In this document: one piece after another, positions 3,953 through 16,179 of the stretch
Layout: every line of letters begins with the position of its first letter
How positions within the stretch are numbered: the stretch's first letter is position 1
Origin: a virus
Taxonomy: Duplodnaviria; Caudoviricetes
Virus record (IMG/VR): IMGVR_UViG_3300036792_000044
Span: 1-52,446 of that record
Reading direction: 5' to 3' (one strand)
Length of the DNA stretch: 52,446 nucleotides
Made by a program: the position numbers and the translations under genes
Notes under the pieces: generated by a model
The model's input: the letters and a program-made list of their open reading frames with translations, nothing else
Told to the model about the DNA's origin: nothing
The model's database searches: none

Positions 3953-4221
3953 CTGACCTCCAAGGCCATGAGCCACGCGCTGATATACCGTAGGCACCAA
4001 CGCAAGCGCGGGTGGTCGTCGGCAATCATCTTGAGACTGATCCCCAAATCGTATGTGGCATGGTCGATTCCGTCCTTGATGAACTGCCACAGCACTGGCA
4101 CAATACCTAGTACCTCTTGCTCTAGCCCGTCGTCATTGAACCGAATCTCGTAGCTAGTCAACGCAAGTCGGTCTGTCAGGCGCAACGGCTTGACGAGAGT
4201 AAACCCGTCACACTTCATCAT
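3949..4221 (-). CDS. hypothetical protein
   Basis: 90-aa ORF within a tightly packed operon. Confidence 0.5.
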   Translation of the reverse strand: MMKCDGFTLVKPLRLTDRLALTSYEIRFNDDGLEQEVLGIVPVLWQFIKDGIDHATYDLGISLKMIADDHPRLRWCLRYISAWLMALEVR

Positions 4222-6253: not shown

Positions 6254-6877
6254 TCAGAACGGCGGCTCGTCGTCCACCACGTTGCTGTCTGCGGTAGCGG
6301 CCGAATCGTCCTCGGCCGGAATCGCGTTCAGATTGTGGTATGCCTCTTCGGCTTTCGTCAGCCACTCGCTGTTGGGCTTCGGCTCCCGCAGGGTCACCGG
6401 CCCGTAGATGCCGACTGAGCGCCCACGCGGAACTCGTTCTACCTCAGCCTGATCCGCAATCTCTGGACCAGACGGGTTGCCCTGCGCGTCGTACACCTGA
6501 GCCTTGTCGGTCGTCTGCTGCACGATGTCTCCGACGTTGACGGGTCGGCCAAGCTCCCGTTTAGCTTCGATCCAGTCGGCAAATGCCTTGCCCTTCAAGA
6601 TGAGTCGGGCAAGTTCGCCCGCCTCGGGCACGTGCTCGTCGTCGCCCAACCCTACCGGCGCGGTCGTCCCTGGTAACGTGAGGCAGGTGATAACCATTTC
6701 CTGCCTTGGCTTTTGGTTGGCCTTGAGGATGGGCACCATGTTGCCGGTGGTGTCGTCCTTCTTGAGCCGGTCCCGTTGCTGAACCTTGACGACTGCGCCA
6801 AAGTACTTCTGGCCCAGCGCCGTTCGCTTCACCACCGGCAAGCCTGGCTGGCGTTCCTCTTCTAGTGCGATTCCCAT
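6254..6877 (-). CDS. putative single-stranded DNA-binding protein
   Basis: From the ATG at 6877; beta-rich core and acidic tail ending DDEPPF, typical of SSBs. Confidence 0.55.
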   Translation of the reverse strand: MGIALEEERQPGLPVVKRTALGQKYFGAVVKVQQRDRLKKDDTTGNMVPILKANQKPRQEMVITCLTLPGTTAPVGLGDDEHVPEAGELARLILKGKAFADWIEAKRELGRPVNVGDIVQQTTDKAQVYDAQGNPSGPEIADQAEVERVPRGRSVGIYGPVTLREPKPNSEWLTKAEEAYHNLNAIPAEDDSAATADSNVVDDEPPF

Positions 6878-6881
6878 TGTG

Positions 6882-7280
6882 TCATCTTTCGTGTTGTGCC
6901 GCAGTAACATTGAAACCCGCTGCGACTCGGGCGGTCTGAATGTGCTGTCGTCCAGCATTGGTGATACGTGATACGCCGACCAGTCTCCCATTGCTGCCCA
7001 ACACCTTTCGCTGCTTACCCTCTCTGTCGTATACCCAACAGATCAGGCCCAGCTTGCGCAGGTCCGAGCAGCGGTGCCACCAACAGATACCTTGCTGGCG
7101 CAAACCCGCACGCTCGGCCAGTACCTCGTCGGTGAAAAGTGGTGAGTCAGTGAGTGATACGAGATAGGCTTCGGAAAGTATTGCGAGACAATGGCTTTGC
7201 GCCGTAGTCAGTAACTCGGCTGCAATGTGCGAAGTCTCGGGGTCGTCGCGTCGTACGCGTGGTATGTCGTCAAAGTCCAT
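6882..7280 (-). CDS. putative winged-helix DNA-binding protein
   Basis: RRDDPETSHIAA...TDEVL...RCSDLRKLGLI pattern, which I recall from phage wHTH proteins; GGGAG SD. Confidence 0.55.
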   Translation of the reverse strand: MDFDDIPRVRRDDPETSHIAAELLTTAQSHCLAILSEAYLVSLTDSPLFTDEVLAERAGLRQQGICWWHRCSDLRKLGLICWVYDREGKQRKVLGSNGRLVGVSRITNAGRQHIQTARVAAGFNVTAAQHER

Positions 7281-9293: not shown

Positions 9294-9511
9294 AGCTCGA
9301 ATCCCCTTACAGTGCGGGTGATTCCAAGGGACTTGGCAGCAGCGGACGCGTTGAGTGCGTCGACAACCTGCTGTCCCCACTCGGGTTCGCGCATCGCTCC
9401 GATTATGTCTGGCACTTCCTCCCAACGCATTTCGGTGATCATGCGAACGTACACCTGGTCGTCGTCGCCGTCGTAAACCTCGATCTTGAGGAACTGAGTC
9501 ATGTGACTCAC
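9290..9511 (-). CDS. hypothetical protein
   Basis: 73-aa ORF with overlapping start and stop. Confidence 0.55.
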   Translation of the reverse strand: MSHMTQFLKIEVYDGDDDQVYVRMITEMRWEEVPDIIGAMREPEWGQQVVDALNASAAAKSLGITRTVRGFEL

Positions 9512-9744
9512 ACCGCCGCTAGGAACGGATGGTCGACATTACCCTTGCGTGCAGTCACCAACGCGTCGAACAGGCGGATGGTGGACTCTTCGCTCGGGCA
9601 ATGTATTTCGATGCCGGTATGCCTGCCGCCGATGACGCGTATGACGTAGTGCATACCGTCGCCCTCGGGGTGATGCTCGGCCACAATGCTTTCGGTGCAA
9701 CGCTGGTAGCAGCGTATAAGTTGCTCGGGGTTTGCGAATGGCAT
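9508..9744 (-). CDS. hypothetical protein
   Basis: ATG at 9744 (MPFANPEQ) after a CAGGAG SD. Confidence 0.6.
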   Translation of the reverse strand: MPFANPEQLIRCYQRCTESIVAEHHPEGDGMHYVIRVIGGRHTGIEIHCPSEESTIRLFDALVTARKGNVDHPFLAAV

Positions 9745-9914
9745 GATGCTTTGTCTCCTGTTTGGTCGTCTGCGTGTGACGGTACGCGCAGGGTCCGACA
9801 AAGCAAGCGCTTTGAACCCGGCGATCCCAAAGGTGTGGGTACACCTAGTGATTCAGCCGGTACCGTAGCTGCGCTCAGATGCCCATTGCTGCCGCTCAGA
9901 TCGATTCTGGGCAC

Positions 9915-9948
9915 AAAAAAACCCCGACAGGACGAATCCTGCCGGGGT
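9915..9948 (-). terminator. rho-independent terminator closing the ribozyme operon
   Basis: Minus strand CCCCGGCAGGA-TTCG-TCCTGTCGGGG followed by T7. Confidence 0.85.
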
Positions 9949-9967
9949 CAATTTGTGTTCGTCTCCC

Positions 9968-10150
9968 TTAGCGCTTACGCGCCTGCATTCCGTTGGCTAC
10001 CGTAGGTTTCCGTGGTCTGCTGTAGACCGTGAGCCACATACGAACCAGGTTCGATATGTTCGTGCCGTCGCGCTTCGCTTGCGCTGTCGCACTGTCCCAC
10101 AGTTCATCATCGATGCGAATGTTTCGCGTCTTAGTTCCCTTGCCGGGCAT
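9968..10150 (-). CDS. ribbon-helix-helix (Arc/CopG-like) DNA-binding protein
   Basis: TRNIRIDDELWDSATAQAKRDGTNISNLVRMWL fits the RHH pattern; AAGGA SD. Confidence 0.75.
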   Translation of the reverse strand: MPGKGTKTRNIRIDDELWDSATAQAKRDGTNISNLVRMWLTVYSRPRKPTVANGMQARKR

Positions 10151-10183
10151 GATGTTTCATCCTTTCCTTTCCTGAATCCGTTG

Positions 10184-10534
10184 TTACACTTTCATGTTCG
10201 GCGTGGACAGCCATGCGTCGAGTGCGGGCATGTTGGACGGGCACAGGTCGTACACCGCTTCAACGATGATGACCGCCGCGTCGTGCGCCGTGACACCAGA
10301 GCTAAGCGCCGCTGCCGCTTCGGTATTGATGCCCGCCGTACCGTTGGCGCTGGCGTCCGAGCACACTTGATGCCCTACTGCCAGCGTAATCGGCGCGGTG
10401 TAAACACCATGCGCCGCAACGTCATTGATGAACGACGCCTCGTCGGCCTTCGCCGTCTGAGCGAAGCTCATAGCGACCGCCGTGGCAGCGCCCGCGATTG
10501 CGCAGACAATGCCAGACCTCTTGTAGTTCTTCAT
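10184..10534 (-). CDS. DUF732-like secreted mycobacterial protein
   Basis: Signal peptide ending AKA-D; F...GHQVC...AVYDLCP motif. Confidence 0.7.
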   Translation of the reverse strand: MKNYKRSGIVCAIAGAATAVAMSFAQTAKADEASFINDVAAHGVYTAPITLAVGHQVCSDASANGTAGINTEAAAALSSGVTAHDAAVIIVEAVYDLCPSNMPALDAWLSTPNMKV

Positions 10535-10611
10535 GTTTCGTCTCCAATCTGTTGTGTTTCGGACTGAGTTGTCCAGCGGCTCAGCCTCTTACGAGGCTGG
10601 CCTAGTACTAC

Positions 10612-10824
10612 TCAGTGCGTTCTCTTGTGCGCCTTGAGCCACGCGCCGAAGTCAATCAGCGTGTGCCCCTTGGCTTTCGCGTGTTCCACGTCCCCGGCAT
10701 ATGCGCCGGTTAGTTCCTCGAATGCCTGCTCCTGCCGCCATCGTTCGATACGGTAGGACGCGACGAGGTCGGCGTGAGCCGGTGAGCAAGACCTGTGGCG
10801 CGTACTGCATGGCGTGAAAGTCAT
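10612..10824 (-). CDS. hypothetical protein (ribozyme cassette gene)
   Basis: ATG at 10824 after the shared GATTGGAGAC SD leader. Confidence 0.7.
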   Translation of the reverse strand: MTFTPCSTRHRSCSPAHADLVASYRIERWRQEQAFEELTGAYAGDVEHAKAKGHTLIDFGAWLKAHKRTH

Positions 10825-10846
10825 TGCTGTCTCCAATCGTTGGCTT

Positions 10847-10908
10847 GTCTCTTCAGTGGGGAGGGAACCACCCTAACCCAGACCCGCTGCACCGCAGCGG
10901 GTTTCGAC
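10847..10908 (-). ncRNA. type II hammerhead ribozyme HH-1
   Basis: GUC-GAAA-CCCGCUGC(GGU)GCAGCGGG-UC^-stem I-CUGAAGA-GAC; predicted cut between 10881 and 10880. Confidence 0.9.
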
Positions 10909-10912
10909 TATC

Positions 10913-11251
10913 TCAGTGTGTCGACCATGTCTGGCCTCCGTCGTGTGAGTGCACGCCACGGGCCAGCGCTGCACGGTCAACGGCCTTACCCGCCAACATT
11001 TCTTGGCGTTGCAGGTTCATCTTGGCAGCAGCGCTACCAGACCGTGTGATGGTCCGGTAGATGCACGCGTCGGAGATACCGTCGCGGTCGCTGTCGGACA
11101 GCCCGAGGAACGTAACCGCTCCCTGTGGGCCAACTTTCAGCTTCAACCGGCCGCTTGAAATGAGCTTGTCAATCTGGCTCATTCGCTTGCGTACCTCTTC
11201 CTTGCGCTGCGCGAGCGTTTGGCGAGGCTTCAGCATTGTGTCGCATACCAT
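10913..11251 (-). CDS. hypothetical protein of the AAA-ATPase module
   Basis: 112 aa; MVCDT...VGPQGA...DACIYR...HSHDGG motifs; shared SD leader. Confidence 0.8.
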   Translation of the reverse strand: MVCDTMLKPRQTLAQRKEEVRKRMSQIDKLISSGRLKLKVGPQGAVTFLGLSDSDRDGISDACIYRTITRSGSAAAKMNLQRQEMLAGKAVDRAALARGVHSHDGGQTWSTH

Positions 11252-11272
11252 TTTGTCTCCAATCGTTGTGGC

Positions 11273-11333
11273 AGTCTCTTCAGTGAGGGAATGCCAATCC
11301 CTCAGACCTGGTGCTAGGCACCAGGTTTCGACT
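11273..11333 (-). ncRNA. type II hammerhead ribozyme HH-2
   Basis: AGUC-GAAA-CCUGGUGC(CUA)GCACCAGG-UC^-UGAGGGA(UUGGCAU)UCCCUCA-CUGAAGA-GACU; cut between 11305 and 11304. Confidence 0.93.
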
Positions 11334-12070
11334 TATCCGGCGAGGTCTATGTTCCTGCCGTTCTTCGGTCGCACGTACTCGACACCGCCGCTATTCTCGA
11401 TGTCGAGGAACTGCACGCGTGCCATCTTCAGACGCGTAAGCGCTTGCCGGTCAACCTCTTTCGCAGCAGCTTGACCAACCTGGCTCATCTTGTCTGCCAC
11501 CTGGCGAGACGCCTTAATGGCTGCTTGCAACCTCGGCGTTGCCTCCGGTGACAGCACCTTGCCGACCTGCGTTAGCTTGTTCGCGTTGTCTCGAATCATC
11601 TTGGGGTCCAACGCTTTAACGCCTGCCTGCATACCGTCCACCAACTGGCGTACCTCGCTGGCGATGGCACGAACCGTCTCCACGTCATCCTGAGCTATGC
11701 GACCAGTGATGACGTAGAACGAGATTCGCGTTGTCCGCGCCGTGGCGTTGAACTCGTCGGCAAGCCTGCGGGCCTCTTCGACGGCCTCTCGCAAATCTTC
11801 CTCTTTGTTGTTGGGGCAGATAAGCGAGTTGCTGAAAGCTGTTGCTACGCAATGCTTCAGGATTAGGCCACGAATCTTGGTCCGCTGCTTGATGGCTGCC
11901 TCTTGCTCGTCAACGTCGTTGACTTGCTTGCGAGTGTGAATGTCGGTTACCTCGGTACGGTCCATCCGCACCACGTCTCGGTCGATGTCGTGGTACGACA
12001 CATTGCCCTTAACGCTGGTGAACATCGACACCAACAGGCCAGGGCGCAGGGTGTGAAATTCCATTGTCAT
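11333..12070 (-). CDS. helical hypothetical protein, possibly DUF3150-like partner of the AAA ATPase
   Basis: ATG at 12070 after the shared SD; helical/coiled-coil composition. The family assignment is from recollection only. Confidence 0.7.
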   Translation of the reverse strand: MTMEFHTLRPGLLVSMFTSVKGNVSYHDIDRDVVRMDRTEVTDIHTRKQVNDVDEQEAAIKQRTKIRGLILKHCVATAFSNSLICPNNKEEDLREAVEEARRLADEFNATARTTRISFYVITGRIAQDDVETVRAIASEVRQLVDGMQAGVKALDPKMIRDNANKLTQVGKVLSPEATPRLQAAIKASRQVADKMSQVGQAAAKEVDRQALTRLKMARVQFLDIENSGGVEYVRPKNGRNIDLAG

Positions 12071-12093
12071 GTTTGTCTCCAATCGGTTTGGCT

Positions 12094-12157
12094 TGTCTCT
12101 TCAGTGAGCAGGGAGCCACCCTAACTCAGACCCGCTGCTAGGCAGCGGGTTTCGACA
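12094..12157 (-). ncRNA. type II hammerhead ribozyme HH-3
   Basis: UGUC-GAAA-CCCGCUGC(CUA)GCAGCGGG-UC^-stem I-CUGAAGA-GACA; cut between 12129 and 12128. Confidence 0.92.
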
Positions 12158-13735
12158 TCACACCAGATCAAGCTGGCGTCCGCGCTTGCGCGCCGTGCTG
12201 GTGTCCGCTGCGGCAGCGCTGGTCGCCGGGCGAGCACGCCCGAGCCAGAACTCCCGCAGACGTTCGATCTTCTCGAACGCTGACTTCGCCAGTGGCACAA
12301 CCGTTTTCGCTGCTTCGAGCAGGTCGTCGGTTGTGACCTCACGTGCGCCATCGTTGAACGCCGCGAACATTGCATCCGGTACCAGAGCAGCTAGCTCAGC
12401 GCCGGTAAACAAGTCCGTTGCTTCGCTGATAGCTGCCAGGTTGACATCTGCACTGCTCCGACCGTGCGCCTTCAGCGCGGCCGTCGTAATGCTGGCACGC
12501 TCGCCAGGTGTAGGCAGGTCAACCCACCACACCTCGTCAAAACGTCCCTTGCGCAACAACTCTGGCGGTAGCTTCTCGGCATTGTTGGCGGTCGCGATAA
12601 CGAACGCCTCACCTTGCCGGTCTTGCATCCACGAGAGGATGGCACCGAGCGCATCCGCACTCACGCCACCGTCGGCCGAACCCGAAGTTGCACCCTCAAG
12701 CGCCTTTTCGATTTCGTCCAACCAGACAACGCAGCGGCCGATAGCCTCGATGACGCCTAATGCCTTGCGCAAGTTGCCCTCTGACTCACCAACGTACTTG
12801 GACTTGAGCGCACCCAGGTCCAAGCGCAGCAGCGGAACGCCCCATGCCGTAGCAATTGCCTTGGCAGTCAACGACTTTCCGCAACCGGGAACGCCGACGA
12901 GCAGCGCACCCTTGGGAGCTGGCAGACCGTACTCTCTGGCAGCCGGTGAGTACGCGCTCGCACGCGACACCAACCATGCCTTCAGATTGTCAAGTCCGCC
13001 AACGGCTTCCAGCCCGCCCGGTATCGGGTCGAACCATTCGATGACACCCTCACGCGCAACCACTCGTTTCTTTTCGGCGGCGACGAGCGCGGAGTCAATC
13101 TTGAAAGCCTGCACCAGCGACCGGGCAAAGGTGGCTTGCGCCTCTTCGCCCGAAAGGCCAACCGCCGCATCGATTGCGGAGTCACGAGAACCGTTGGACA
13201 ACTTCTCAATTCGAGGGTCGTCTTGGTACGGCTCCATGGTGTCGTCCAGTAGCTCTGCAATTTCCTCGCGGTCGGGCAGAGGCCACTCGATAACCGTTGT
13301 GTGGTTGGCTAATTCGGCCGGTACATCTTTTGTTGGTGAGATCACGATGATGGCTTGCGCGTCATCTTGGTCCTTGGCGGGAAGCTGGCGAGCCAGATTC
13401 CTCAAGCGCCGCAAGGGCATTGCGCCCTGCGGGCCGGTGAGCCACACGGGTAAGTCCCGCATGATCCACACGCCACGCTCGCCGGACTTCTCCCCGATAG
13501 CTGTGAAAGCTGCGTCGGGGTCACCCTCGGCATTACCGTAGGTGTTCAACGGCTTTCCAGCCATTGTGGTGAATCCTGCTGCGATGTCCCATGTTTGAGC
13601 AAGGTAACCTGCATTGGCAGCCGCTTGGAAGAGGTACTGTTCTACACGTGCCTCTTCGCGAGTCACTACCCACAGCAACGGGTTACGTGCGCGGAGTAGT
13701 GCAGCGATGTCCAGGGTTACATCTTGTGATTTCAT
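12158..13735 (-). CDS. AAA+ ATPase (Ycf46-like architecture)
   Basis: Walker A GVPGCGKS, Walker B VVWLDEIEK, SRH ATAN...PPELLRKGRFDE; degenerate N-terminal AAA domain. The likely start is the ATG at 13735. Confidence 0.9.
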   Translation of the reverse strand: MKSQDVTLDIAALLRARNPLLWVVTREEARVEQYLFQAAANAGYLAQTWDIAAGFTTMAGKPLNTYGNAEGDPDAAFTAIGEKSGERGVWIMRDLPVWLTGPQGAMPLRRLRNLARQLPAKDQDDAQAIIVISPTKDVPAELANHTTVIEWPLPDREEIAELLDDTMEPYQDDPRIEKLSNGSRDSAIDAAVGLSGEEAQATFARSLVQAFKIDSALVAAEKKRVVAREGVIEWFDPIPGGLEAVGGLDNLKAWLVSRASAYSPAAREYGLPAPKGALLVGVPGCGKSLTAKAIATAWGVPLLRLDLGALKSKYVGESEGNLRKALGVIEAIGRCVVWLDEIEKALEGATSGSADGGVSADALGAILSWMQDRQGEAFVIATANNAEKLPPELLRKGRFDEVWWVDLPTPGERASITTAALKAHGRSSADVNLAAISEATDLFTGAELAALVPDAMFAAFNDGAREVTTDDLLEAAKTVVPLAKSAFEKIERLREFWLGRARPATSAAAADTSTARKRGRQLDLV

Positions 13736-13758
13736 TTTGTCTCCAATCGGTTTGGCTT

Positions 13759-13820
13759 GTCTCTTCAGTGGGGAGGGAGCCACCCTCGCCCAGACCCGCT
13801 GGCTCGCAGCGGGTTTCGAC
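13759..13820 (-). ncRNA. type II hammerhead ribozyme HH-4
   Basis: GUC-GAAA-CCCGCUG(CGAGC)CAGCGGG-UC^-stem I-CUGAAGA-GAC; cut between 13793 and 13792. Confidence 0.92.
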
Positions 13821-14239
13821 TAGCAGTCGCAGCACTCGACGGGCGTAATCGGCATGATCGCCGAGCCGATGTCGATGTGTGCTGTCTTGGGGAATTCCTC
13901 GTAAAACGATTCTTTCCCAAGGTATTTCGCGTATGCGGTGCGAACCTTGGCGTCGGGGTTGATATTGAATACCTCGATCAACACGTCTCGGTAGACGTGC
14001 CAGCACACCGCAGCGACCCTACGCTCGCCGCTCCATTTAATGGAGCGTTTCTGCCCTGGCGCTAACTCTTCGACGGGTAATCCCATACCGTAGCCAGTGA
14101 CCTTGAGCTTCACCGTTGCGCGAAAGCGCTTGGGAGAGTAGGTGGTTCCGAAGTCTGCCCGTAGGTTGTCCGCGTACAGTGCGCCAGCTTTCGCGACGGC
14201 CTGCTCGAATTCCCCTGTGGTGATTCCGGTTATCTGCAT
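13820..14239 (-). CDS. hypothetical protein (ribozyme cassette gene)
   Basis: 139 aa; CWH motif and C-terminal ECCDC; shared SD leader. Confidence 0.8.
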   Translation of the reverse strand: MQITGITTGEFEQAVAKAGALYADNLRADFGTTYSPKRFRATVKLKVTGYGMGLPVEELAPGQKRSIKWSGERRVAAVCWHVYRDVLIEVFNINPDAKVRTAYAKYLGKESFYEEFPKTAHIDIGSAIMPITPVECCDC

Positions 14240-14260
14240 GTTGTCTCCAATCGTTGTGGC

Positions 14261-14321
14261 AGTCTCTTCAGTGAGGGAATGCCAATCCCTCAGACCCGCT
14301 GTCTCGCAGCGGGTTTCGACT
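14261..14321 (-). ncRNA. type II hammerhead ribozyme HH-5
   Basis: AGUC-GAAA-CCCGCUG(CGAGA)CAGCGGG-UC^-UGAGGGA(UUGGCAU)UCCCUCA-CUGAAGA-GACU; cut between 14293 and 14292. Confidence 0.93.
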
Positions 14322-14545
14322 TAAAACATGTGAACGGTTACCACGTATTCGTTCTCACCCTTGGCACCGCGCAAGCGCAGCGCACGAATGAGACCGTGGT
14401 CCATACCATCGAATTCGTCATCGTAGACAACAGCGCTCGCGGTGTTGATTGCCCGCGTGCAGAAGTTGTTTGCTTCCATCTCCGACGCGACACTCTTGGT
14501 CTTGGTCTGGTAGGTGGTCTGCGACTGCATCGTGATCTGGTACAT
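14321..14545 (-). CDS. hypothetical protein (first ribozyme cassette gene)
   Basis: 74 aa; shared SD leader. Confidence 0.75.
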   Translation of the reverse strand: MYQITMQSQTTYQTKTKSVASEMEANNFCTRAINTASAVVYDDEFDGMDHGLIRALRLRGAKGENEYVVTVHMF

Positions 14546-14569
14546 ATTGTCTCCAATCTGAAATGGCTT

Positions 14570-14630
14570 ATCTCGTCAGTGATTTGGGAGCCACCCAAAC
14601 CAGACCCGCTGCTAGGCAACGGGTTTCGAT
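14570..14630 (-). ncRNA. type II hammerhead ribozyme HH-6
   Basis: AUC-GAAA-CCCGUUGC(CUA)GCAGCGGG-UC^-UGGUUUGGG(UGGCU)CCCAAAUCA-CUGACGA-GAU; cut between 14603 and 14602; compensatory AUC/GAU stem II. Confidence 0.9.
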
Positions 14631-15027
14631 TGAAGGAGACGGGCTTCGCCTGCGTCTTGATCTTGCACTACCTGTCGTCTATGAAGCGATCGGCGCATTA
14701 CCCTTGCTTGTGGCGCAGGCGCTACCCGGGACTTCCCGGTCTTACACAGTGAGCAACGACAGTTACTCTAGATCATGGAGCATTTTGAAACCTTATGTGG
14801 GACATCACCTTTCGAGACGTGAAAGGCGTCGACCTTACTGCTAGGTCGAACGGCGGGTGCGTGCAGCGACTGTCGAAGTTCTCGCGCATTCGGTTGCGGC
14901 ACTGCGTCTTACGTATGTCCTGGTGCGTTATAGGAATCCCTTGATTGGGGCTGGCTGCCATCCGCTCGTGTTCGTCGGCTCGTGCGCTCGTAACGTCTTA
15001 TCCAGTTGTCCACCGCGCTAGCGGCTT
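14631..15027 (-). ncRNA. putative structured leader RNA of about 400 nt
   Basis: No convincing ORF; several hairpins; lies between the promoter and HH-6. Confidence 0.45.
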
Positions 15028-15033
15028 GCCGCT

Positions 15034-15062
15034 AGCTTATTCACATGTCCCCACATTGTCAA
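15034..15062 (-). promoter_or_regulatory. SigA/sigma70-type promoter of the early operon
   Basis: TTGACA (15062-15057), 17-nt spacer, TAAGCT (15039-15034). Confidence 0.8.
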
Positions 15063-15432
15063 TACACCGTAGGGTCTAGCTAACCCGAAACGGTGACAAA
15101 AATCTTGTGAACGTGCAGGTCAGGACGTTCCTATGAGAATCCCAGCAAAGTCACAATAACCACACTAGCCCCACTGGTGACAGCAAAAAATACCCGTGCA
15201 GACCAGGGCAAATACTGAAATGCCTTGGCCCGCACGGGAATTCAAATTACGGCTTGACCTGGGATTATCTATCGTATCCGTTCACAATCATGCTCGCTAC
15301 GGGTAGCCCGAAGAACAACCACCACCACATGCCGATGCCGAACATCAGTGCGGCGCAACAGAACTGAGATAGATGATCAGCAGAAACATTGCGCCGTAAG
15401 CGATTACGACCGCTAGGATCAGCGGCCACAGG

Positions 15433-15918
15433 CTAGGTGGTCCCGCAGGCTTTCGCTGCACGGCTCGCGTTGTCCTGGTTGTCCTGGCGCAGCTTGTTCG
15501 CTTCGCCGACCTTGCTCTGATATTCCTGCGTAATCGGATCGGTGTACGCCCGCAACGCCGGATCGTTCTGCGGCAGTCCGCGCAATTCCGGTGGGATACT
15601 AAGCGATTTGGTGATCGCTAGCTGGAATGCGTCTCGCTCCATCTTGTTCGCGGCGTTCTCGTTGGCCTGCGAAACCGCAAGGCGGATAGAGCAATTGCGC
15701 GCCTGATCCACGCTCACCATGATCCACGTCATGGCGATGATGATGATGATTCCGACCAGGGTTATGAACCCATCTCGTTTCACGCGCACCGTTTCGCCGG
15801 GATGCCTGCGTTCCTGCCACGCGCAGACTCCCCAATTGATACCGTAGCCGAGCAGCAACCCGGCGACGAGCACCAAAACGTATGGCAGCGTTATGTTTTC
15901 GCTGAGCCAGTTGAACAT
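15433..15918 (-). CDS. membrane protein with two TM segments (lysis cassette)
   Basis: Two hydrophobic segments and a Cys pair; downstream of the holin. Confidence 0.7.
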   Translation of the reverse strand: MFNWLSENITLPYVLVLVAGLLLGYGINWGVCAWQERRHPGETVRVKRDGFITLVGIIIIIAMTWIMVSVDQARNCSIRLAVSQANENAANKMERDAFQLAITKSLSIPPELRGLPQNDPALRAYTDPITQEYQSKVGEANKLRQDNQDNASRAAKACGTT

Positions 15919-16179
15919 TTAACTCTCTCCCTTATCGACGGAACGCTGCCGGATGCAGTAACCGAACCATGTTGCCAGCGTGCCAGTCCACGCCACCGAA
16001 ATTGTCTGGGGCACAGCGGCTCCCGAGAAGTTGTGAGCCGCTATCCCGCTGGTCACGTAGAACGCCACGTAGAACAGACTGACAGCAGCCATGGCTATGT
16101 GCGGCAGATACTTCTCCTGAAACACGCGCTGCCGCAACGATGTCCGGACTTCTGCCTCTTCGGGCGCTCGGTGAGTCAT
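15919..16179 (-). CDS. membrane protein (lysis cassette)
   Basis: From MTHRAPEE; two hydrophobic segments. Confidence 0.55.
   Translation of the reverse strand: MTHRAPEEAEVRTSLRQRVFQEKYLPHIAMAAVSLFYVAFYVTSGIAAHNFSGAAVPQTISVAWTGTLATWFGYCIRQRSVDKGES

Follow-up and report, generated by a model that had tools for sequence, protein, structure and literature searches.

Six type II hammerhead ribozymes at consecutive gene borders of a probable actinophage and their likely role in the formation of single-gene mRNAs

Prophages often carry several type II hammerhead ribozymes, with a pseudoknot between loop I and the tail, that flank individual genes or small gene groups (PMC3088659). According to that report, three such arrays cleave in vitro and one in vivo, and the processing of transcripts into single-gene mRNAs was proposed. 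Three type II hammerheads have also been reported to cleave in Desulfovibrio cells (PMC8782182). A review from 2019 describes polycistronic processing as only suggested and the roles of bacterial ribozymes as largely elusive (PMC6765202). In Escherichia coli, RiboJ is reported to raise protein levels 2- to 10-fold and transcript levels about 2-fold (PMC6206723). Our search of the literature on hammerheads in actinophages and on type II hammerheads in prophages yielded nothing beyond PMC3088659 and PMC6765202, and the supplement of the 2011 study may already list similar phages. Here, we analyze an array of six type II hammerheads in the virus record IMGVR_UViG_3300036792_000044 (Duplodnaviria; Caudoviricetes). 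The record, referred to below as the window, is a complete virus sequence of 52,446 bp that carries direct repeats at its termini.

The array was located with a core pattern consisting of CGAAAC, a gap, GTC, a gap, and CTGANGA. This pattern matched the window six times, exclusively on the minus strand, at an expectation of 0.15 from dinucleotide shuffles; none of 100 shuffles reached six matches. A stricter pattern, for which no match was expected, recovered four of the six copies (HH5, HH4, HH3, and HH1). Within 3.7 kb of the minus strand, each of six successive stop-to-start gaps contains one of the elements. The positions of C17, after which the RNA would be cut, were counted from the pattern matches. 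They agree exactly with the span of 10881 to 14602 and the example junctions given in a first-pass annotation of the window, which had proposed that the units between the ribozymes could form circular mRNAs. The six elements are as follows (SD, Shine-Dalgarno box; R1, covariance model described below; RF02276, Rfam model Hammerhead_II).

14560..14631, minus strand: HH6, type II; cut after C17 at 14603, 3' product from 14602; stem II AUC/GAU; SD GATTGGAGAC at 14549-14558; R1 78.6 bits, RF02276 29.6 bits
14253..14321, minus strand: HH5, type II; cut after C17 at 14293, 3' product from 14292; stem II AGUC/GACU, touching the stop codon; SD at 14243-14252; R1 78.0 bits
13750..13821, minus strand: HH4, type II; cut after C17 at 13793, 3' product from 13792; SD at 13739-13748; R1 93.2 bits, RF02276 30.7 bits
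12086..12157, minus strand: HH3, type II; cut after C17 at 12129, 3' product from 12128; SD at 12075-12084; R1 96.3 bits
11265..11333, minus strand: HH2, type II; cut after C17 at 11305, 3' product from 11304; SD at 11255-11264; R1 77.1 bits
10839..10909, minus strand: HH1, type II, last of the array; cut after C17 at 10881, 3' product from 10880; SD at 10829-10838; R1 90.5 bits

All six copies follow the type II order, that is, the 3' strand of stem II, GAAA, the stem III hairpin, GUC, the stem I hairpin, CUGANGA, and the 5' strand of stem II. In each of them, loops close stems I and III and stem II is open. The invariant core is complete in every copy and comprises CUGANGA, GAAA with the A15.1-U16.1 pair, a cut triplet ending in H (not G), and the core-closing pairs. 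Stem II consists of 3 bp, or 4 bp in HH2 and HH5, and stem III is a G+C-rich hairpin of 8-9 bp. Stem I comprises 7-9 bp and includes the first nucleotide of every 3' product. For HH2 and HH5, the minimum-energy fold alone corresponds to the textbook three-way junction. Five pairs between loop I and the tail, that is, the bases just after stem II, are possible in all six copies and occur in two versions with a swapped pair and one wobble. The shuffle control for this pseudoknot was weak: five base pairs were found in four copies, a value equaled by 2-21% of the shuffles, and the loop was cut short for HH2 and HH5. Including spacer and SD box, the six copies are 77-84% alike.

The covariance model R1, built from the six window copies, returned exactly six strong matches in the window, with scores of 77-96 bits. 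Its plus-strand matches were dropped, as they reflected only the palindromic stem III. For covariation analysis, we aligned 20 hammerheads, namely the six of the window and 14 from six loci (five relatives or metagenome-assembled genomes, MAGs, and the phage Hank144). In this set, 97.8% of the cells pair and two-sided changes are seen in 17 of 20 pairs. As the alignment had been fitted to R1, it leans towards the structure. Slid controls gave 38-44%, and none of 500 shuffles equaled the observed value. Within the window, stem III of HH2 differs from that of the other copies by two compensatory pair changes. Judged from sequence and covariation, the six elements are genuine type II hammerheads.

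Each hammerhead is part of a repeated cassette composed of a stop codon, the ribozyme, a short spacer, GAUUGGAGAC as the SD sequence, and AUG. On the minus strand, exact copies of the ten-base SD box GATTGGAGAC are confined to the six hammerheads and one further gap (10540-10549), which carries a different structured element, motif 2, described below. The cut sites lie 27-32 nt 3' of the stop codon, and the next AUG follows 53-58 nt 3' of the cut. At three of the five internal junctions, the stop codon touches or overlaps stem II; at the other two, it is 1-4 nt away. The five internal fragments measure 310, 500, 1664, 824, and 424 nt and each contain one open reading frame (ORF), preceded by GGAG 7-9 nt before the AUG and ending with its own stop codon. 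All five are the single-gene units with SD, ORF, and stop that the first-pass annotation had described. Its account of their anatomy was likewise accurate: the fragments begin with stem I, CUGANGA, and the 5' strand of stem II and finish with the 3' strand of stem II, GAAA, stem III, and GUC. The genes of the fragments, together with those downstream and the candidate ends of the transcription unit, are listed here.

14321..14545, minus strand: 74-amino-acid gene without family match; sole ORF of fragment 14602-14293 (310 nt)
13820..14239, minus strand: 139-amino-acid gene without family match; fragment 14292-13793 (500 nt)
12158..13735, minus strand: AAA+ ATPase of 525 amino acids; fragment 13792-12129 (1664 nt); PF00004 with E 5e-29, AAA_lid_3, phrog_8638 with E 1e-176
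11333..12070, minus strand: 245-amino-acid gene, phrog_11021, function unknown; fragment 12128-11305 (824 nt); located beside the ATPase gene in relatives, too
10913..11251, minus strand: 112-amino-acid gene, phrog_11784, function unknown; fragment 11304-10881 (424 nt)
10612..10824, minus strand: 70-amino-acid gene, phrog_7933, weak helix-turn-helix-like match; first gene past the last hammerhead, start re-read from the leader
10184..10534, minus strand: DUF732-family gene of 116 amino acids; PF05305 with E 3e-7
9971..10150, minus strand: 60-amino-acid gene with weak antitoxin-like matches (E about 0.006); last gene of the unit
9920..9949, minus strand: strong intrinsic terminator, 13-pair stem followed by a T run; probable end of the transcription unit
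15034..15062, minus strand: candidate promoter, read by eye and a lead only; TTGACA at 15062-15057, 17-nt spacer, TAAGCT at 15039-15034

We consider it likely that the six hammerheads in their repeated cassette cut a minus-strand transcript of about 5 kb, independently of the host, into single-gene linear mRNAs. The transcript would start near 15030 and end at the terminator at 9920-9949. Each hammerhead would fold and cut after GUC as RNA polymerase passes, and no host nuclease would be needed. The resulting mRNAs would begin with a 5'-OH group on a base paired in stem I, followed by a near-uniform leader of 53-58 nt with an unpaired SD. They would end 27-32 nt past the retained stop codon with the stem III hairpin and a cyclic phosphate. 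Hence, hairpins would close both ends. The presumable benefit is the same translation start context for every gene, whatever lies upstream, together with a lifetime of its own for each message. Observed here are the motifs with their positions, the covariation, and a slot that is conserved in relatives; cleavage itself, a single transcript, and any influence on stability and translation are what we infer.

Upstream of the first ribozyme, about 800 nt lack a long minus-strand ORF. If the candidate promoter in this region is right, HH6 would remove about 425 nt of leader. A palindrome of 20 nt (15036-15017) extends into the -10 hexamer of this promoter and could be an operator. At about 15236-15185 on the minus strand, we noticed by eye a hairpin followed by a U run that resembles the terminator of a preceding operon; the automated scan listed none there.

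The gene borders of related phages provide a view of what is conserved. Hammerheads in L029, L037, and L043 were located with the strict pattern, and a looser hammerhead expression was left out of the counts. A loose motif search gave mostly false matches; a copy was retained only where the SD box came after it. The genes for the ATPase, the 245-amino-acid protein, and the 112-amino-acid protein stay together in many related contigs, and the content of the gaps varies. Hammerheads are present in the gaps near these genes in the window and in the relatives L029, L037, and L043. The gaps of L008, L033, and L044 contain motif 2, and those of L010 contain neither hammerhead nor motif 2. Per relative, L033 has one hammerhead and six copies of motif 2, L044 has no hammerhead and five copies, and L008 has two of each. 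Motif 2 interchanges with hammerheads at orthologous slots of close relatives: the gap before the DUF732 gene is filled with motif 2 in the window and with a true hammerhead in L008, the two proteins being 51% identical. An HH6-like copy in L008 stands before another gene, that of the ATPase, and both L033 and L044 have additional genes between their cassettes. The constant feature is a single structured element at each gene border, together with the same SD box, and not a pair of hammerheads around a gene. This fits a job that each element does alone, namely cutting and shaping the leader, and not one that requires two matching ribozyme halves.

A comparable array is found in a cultured phage. 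The Streptomyces phage Hank144 (L057, NC_054661) has nine distinct type II hammerheads at 42.6-49.2 kb of its record, within about 6.5 kb of the right arm. All of them lie in gaps between annotated genes or at gene edges, none is annotated, and seven of the nine score above the Rfam threshold, with 37.5-59 bits. As L043 contains eight pattern matches in 7 kb and Hank144 nine hammerheads in about 6.5 kb, the hammerhead density of the window is unexceptional. One Hank144 hammerhead (locus 3964-4027) overlaps gene 73 at its annotated start, a start that may have been called too early. In Mycobacterium phage Corndog (L007), which shares the ATPase, a search with R1 up to an E value of 1 revealed no hammerhead. 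Genes 93-96 of Corndog comprise the ATPase with neighbors sized like the 245- and 112-amino-acid genes, and the gaps around its ATPase gene span about 90-130 nt.

Motif 2 is a structured hairpin of about 55 nt that takes the place of the ribozyme in the slot between stop codon and SD box. Its copies in the window and in relatives are located as follows.

10561..10615, minus strand: motif 2 of the window, in the stop-to-SD slot; followed by the SD box at 10540-10549
6303-6354 and 7179-7229: copies in L008
5675-5726, 5928-5979, 7566-7622, 8370-8422, 8781-8837, and 9582-9633: copies in L033
5927-5978, 7554-7605, 8353-8404, 8762-8814, and about 9716-9769: copies in L044

The window copy folds with -33.1 kcal/mol (z -4.0), and none of 200 shuffles was as good. 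Four permissive Rfam scans gave no match for motif 2. In an alignment of all 14 copies, the sequence of the top hairpin is wholly variable, its pairs being kept, and the base is nearly invariant. Two structural models were compared. A long irregular hairpin, which is the choice of RNAalifold, pairs in 89.4% of the cells, and seven of its 21 pairs have changed on both sides. A second model, built of an outer helix plus the top hairpin and a small hairpin at the 3' side, reaches 94.0% paired cells, and nine of its 19 pairs show two-sided changes. Its 3' hairpin is paired in all 14 copies, with changes on both sides in three of the four pairs. The two basal helices, which are not easily formed together, both covary. 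Since one base of the 3' hairpin covaries with its partners in both models, the data suggest that motif 2 uses two folds in turn. The exact 3' box was found in IMG/VR only in L008, L033, and L044, apart from one chance match; therefore, the family is small, which leaves the evidence from covariation thin. We rejected a hammerhead in permuted or decayed form, as the CUGAGU of motif 2 lies in a helix and G8-A9 is missing.

Motif 2 may be a processing site. Cutting on the 3' side would let the RNA downstream refold so that a hairpin forms its 5' end, as in the hammerhead product. An RNase III-type site and an unknown ribozyme are both conceivable. Taken further, the stop-to-SD gap in this phage clade might be a slot for interchangeable RNA-processing cassettes, filled either by a hammerhead or by motif 2 as a new self-cleaving RNA or a new nuclease signal with a refolding 3' half. 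We regard this as a speculation with a small chance of being right. A bolder addition, according to which the RNA ligase RtcB of the host circularizes some of the hammerhead-bounded messages, is very doubtful.

In either cassette type, a stretch with CCA is located 4-10 nt ahead of the SD box and could pair with the UUGG of the box (for example, window positions 13739-13760 and alignment columns 71-73 with 90-92 of motif 2). In the hammerheads, CCA is part of the tail after stem II, which pairs with loop I when the ribozyme is folded, the UUGG of the SD box being its alternative partner; in motif 2, the competing pairing lies inside the hairpin fold. Speculatively, folding of the element may thus help to keep the SD open or control access to it.

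The window is probably derived from an actinophage. The best matches of its large terminase are prophages of Mycobacterium abscessus (46%) and Gordonia phages (about 41%), and the named genera among the 737 matching records are nearly all actinobacterial. One gene of the window falls into DUF732, a family described from mycobacteria, and at the DNA level the ATPase gene is about 66% identical to the AAA-ATPase genes from Corndog-like mycobacteriophages. The assignment to a probable actinophage is based on these three lines of evidence. Nearly all long ORFs of the window are on the minus strand. A near-identity search of a phage collection with the window gave no match. In a search of sequencing runs, the record was carried by one soil-metagenome DNA run, which is possibly its source. 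Naming the host through prophage relatives was dropped, because the genome scan gave MAG contigs with conflicting labels. Contigs of 68-332 kb with close relatives of the ATPase (61-67% identity; L058-L061) are placed in bins of Rhizobiales, Alphaproteobacteria, Verrucomicrobiia, and Elusimicrobia. Either these are stray phage contigs in the bins, or the ATPase gene module crosses phyla.

Several observations weigh against the processing of an actinophage operon into linear single-gene mRNAs. The nearest relatives of the ATPase are in MAG bins labeled Rhizobiales, Verrucomicrobiia, and Elusimicrobia, whereas terminase and DUF732 point to actinobacteria. A stricter consensus promoter scan of positions 9500-16000 found no promoter-like site. 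The search of sequencing runs returned no RNA run with the record, and both cleavage and the single long transcript are deduced. The predicted accessibility of the SD in the cut leaders is middling (0.41-0.66), in a folding model that ignores the pseudoknot. In the case of glmS, the 5'-OH end made by the ribozyme is described as a decay signal for RNase J1, so that such an end can hasten decay (PMC3328962). Finally, none of the six window copies reaches the gathering score of 37 bits of Rfam Hammerhead_II (RF02276). HH4 and HH6 remained below the threshold with 30.7 and 29.6 bits, respectively, and the other four copies were not reported. Permissive Rfam scans of the window returned only the sub-threshold hammerhead matches and chance matches to glycine riboswitch, NsiR1, and snoRNA. 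A near-identical copy in L008, however, scores 45.1 bits with Rfam, seven Hank144 copies reach 37.5-59 bits, and R1 links the copies of L008, Hank144, and the window. Therefore, we read the Rfam miss as a limit of the Rfam model and its filters and not as doubt on the family. Routine annotation would miss such arrays, given that all six copies fall below the threshold and four go unreported despite a perfect core.

The stability of the products is the point at which a first alternative arises. As a fallback, the first-pass annotation had suggested stable linear mRNAs with a hairpin-capped 5'-OH end. The anatomy fits this, as stem I starts from the first nucleotide. The reason given, namely that RNases E and J prefer 5'-monophosphate ends, is shaky, since RNase J1 accepts the 5'-OH end as a substrate in glmS; if the products are protected, the hairpin at the end would therefore be responsible. 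Accordingly, cleavage might shorten the life of the messages: the 5'-OH end would feed RNase J and allow a fast shut-off or graded levels of early genes, tunable by ribosomes at the stop codon. The glmS precedent favors this alternative, and the stop codons abut stem II, so that a terminating ribosome would unfold the ribozyme. Regulated cleavage of phage hammerheads has been raised before (PMC3088659). By contrast, cleavage of the RiboJ type raises expression in E. coli (PMC6206723), and a destabilizer in front of every gene of an operon is hard to rationalize where one would suffice. Moreover, the first nucleotide of all 3' products is paired in the 7-9-bp stem I. Such a paired 5' end should block a 5' exonuclease that requires a single-stranded end. 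We consider the shortening of message life unlikely, and any effect on stability might be stabilizing or destabilizing.

Alternatively, the cassettes might act mainly as DNA, as border repeats of about 100 bp that serve as recombination linkers for the swap, loss, or gain of genes or that spread selfishly, RNA cleavage being secondary. The similarity of the six copies extends over spacer and SD box, an HH6-like copy precedes a different gene in L008, the type of cassette differs at the same slot between close relatives, and extra genes are present between cassettes in L033 and L044, all of which would be expected of such linkers. The catalytic core, however, is intact in all six window copies and in the 20 aligned copies, and the stems change by compensatory pairs, which argues for selection on the RNA fold and not on DNA identity. 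The presence of two unrelated RNA structures in the same slot likewise points to a job at the RNA level. This explanation is thus quite unlikely.

The third alternative is that the single-gene fragments are closed into functional, nuclease-resistant circular mRNAs, either by reverse hammerhead ligation or by RtcB of the host. The idea is not new, as it was raised for phage arrays in 2011 (PMC3088659). Both the geometry of the fragments and the chemistry of their ends, which the first-pass annotation correctly gave as 5'-OH and 2',3'-cyclic phosphate, as established for hammerheads, would fit circles. It is also true that joining the ends rebuilds a hammerhead, but this holds for any RNA excised between two like ribozymes. 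In four fragments, the stem II halves of neighboring copies are compatible as GAC and GUC, and in the fifth as GAU and GUC. In vitro, RtcB is reported to circularize 30-80% of hammerhead-cut retrozyme RNAs (PMC7229834), and some natural hammerheads are about one-third ligated at equilibrium (PMC2553840). RtcB is common, though patchy, in bacteria: it is encoded by 10 of 14 control genomes and by 67 of 124 genomes of one class of Actinomycetota. The latter tally includes the unpublished genomes G003, G004, G005, G007, G010, G011, G026, G111, and G121; it applies at the class level and is not tied to the phage host.

The properties of the fragments speak against efficient closure. A cut type II hammerhead is held together by stem II alone, that is, by 3-4 bp, as stems I and III and the pseudoknot each reside within one product. 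For self-closure, the stem II helix would have to form across 300-1600 nt. Its predicted probability in the circular ensemble is 0, 0.002, 0.0003, 0.006, and 0.35 for the five fragments, with an energy model that ignores tertiary contacts. Pairing between the first and last 120 nt exceeded the shuffled mean in none of the five fragments; RNAduplex gives unrealistically long duplexes for such 120-nt ends and was used only in comparison with shuffles. Viroid and retrozyme monomers fold with their ends together, so that the likeness to them drawn by the first-pass annotation fails on this very point. A rebuilt ribozyme would have intact stems I and III and pseudoknot and would recut. Viroids escape recutting by folding away from the hammerhead. 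For retrozyme RNAs, self-circularization of only 1-3% is reported (PMC7229834), and the equilibrium of the sTRSV hammerhead lies strongly towards the cut state (PMC2553840). No RtcB was found among the proteins encoded by the phage, and a circle that retains the stop codon offers no gain in translation. L033 and L044, with one hammerhead and none, respectively, keep the same genes with motif 2 instead. An unrelated structured RNA that stands in for the hammerhead points to a processing or leader function and not to circles. In comparable prophage arrays, circular or spliced products were sought and none found, according to a statement in the report for which data are not shown (PMC3088659). 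Functional circular mRNAs are thus very improbable; should circles form at all, they would be minor by-products.

Cleavage into linear single-gene mRNAs is a reading that can be addressed in the laboratory. In the cultured phage Hank144, cleavage, end chemistry, circles, and half-lives are measurable in a laboratory host. Since 2011, it has been an open question what the many hammerheads of phage genomes do, and the window adds a very clean example. Discovery by association has yielded new classes of ribozymes earlier, and motif 2 is a candidate for this route.

The closest described systems are the prophage arrays of Perreault 2011, with which the window shares type II hammerheads with a pseudoknot, several per few kilobases, on the coding strand and flanking single genes (PMC3088659); the prophage arrays comprise other hammerhead types as well. 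The array of the window is denser and more regular, with six ribozymes in 3.7 kb, each at a stop codon and each with the same SD box. Furthermore, it resides in an uncultured actinophage-like genome, the relatives of which substitute another motif in the same slot.

As working analogies, the RNase III sites of the T7 early genes and RiboJ come closest. In T7, RNase III sites in the gaps cut a polycistronic RNA into single-gene mRNAs, and the hairpins at the ends affect stability. This processing depends on a host enzyme and yields 5'-phosphate and 3'-OH ends, whereas the RNA of the window is predicted to cut itself, leaving 5'-OH and cyclic phosphate. RiboJ contains a hammerhead from sTRSV, which has a different topology, and an added hairpin. 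It resembles the cassettes in that a self-cleaving ribozyme just upstream of the SD strips the upstream context and raises expression (PMC6206723). However, RiboJ is one engineered part, whereas the arrangement in the window is natural and precedes six genes.

Retrozymes and hammerhead viroids are similar in having hammerhead-bounded units with ends that can be joined by RtcB-type or tRNA ligases (PMC7229834, PMC7761336). Their units are tandem copies of one non-coding sequence with type I or III ribozymes (PMC7229834, PMC7761336). The units of the window, in contrast, are five different genes (74 to 525 amino acids) with type II ribozymes, and the pairing of their ends amounts to only 3-4 bp. 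In glmS, too, a self-cleaving RNA in a bacterial 5' leader yields a 5'-OH product that decides the fate of the mRNA (PMC3328962). It is metabolite-dependent, present as a single copy, and destabilizing, whereas no ligand pocket or switch is evident in the window hammerheads. In summary, the array of the window belongs to a known kind of phage hammerhead array (PMC3088659). New here are the interchange with an undescribed second motif and a cultured phage suited to settle the question.

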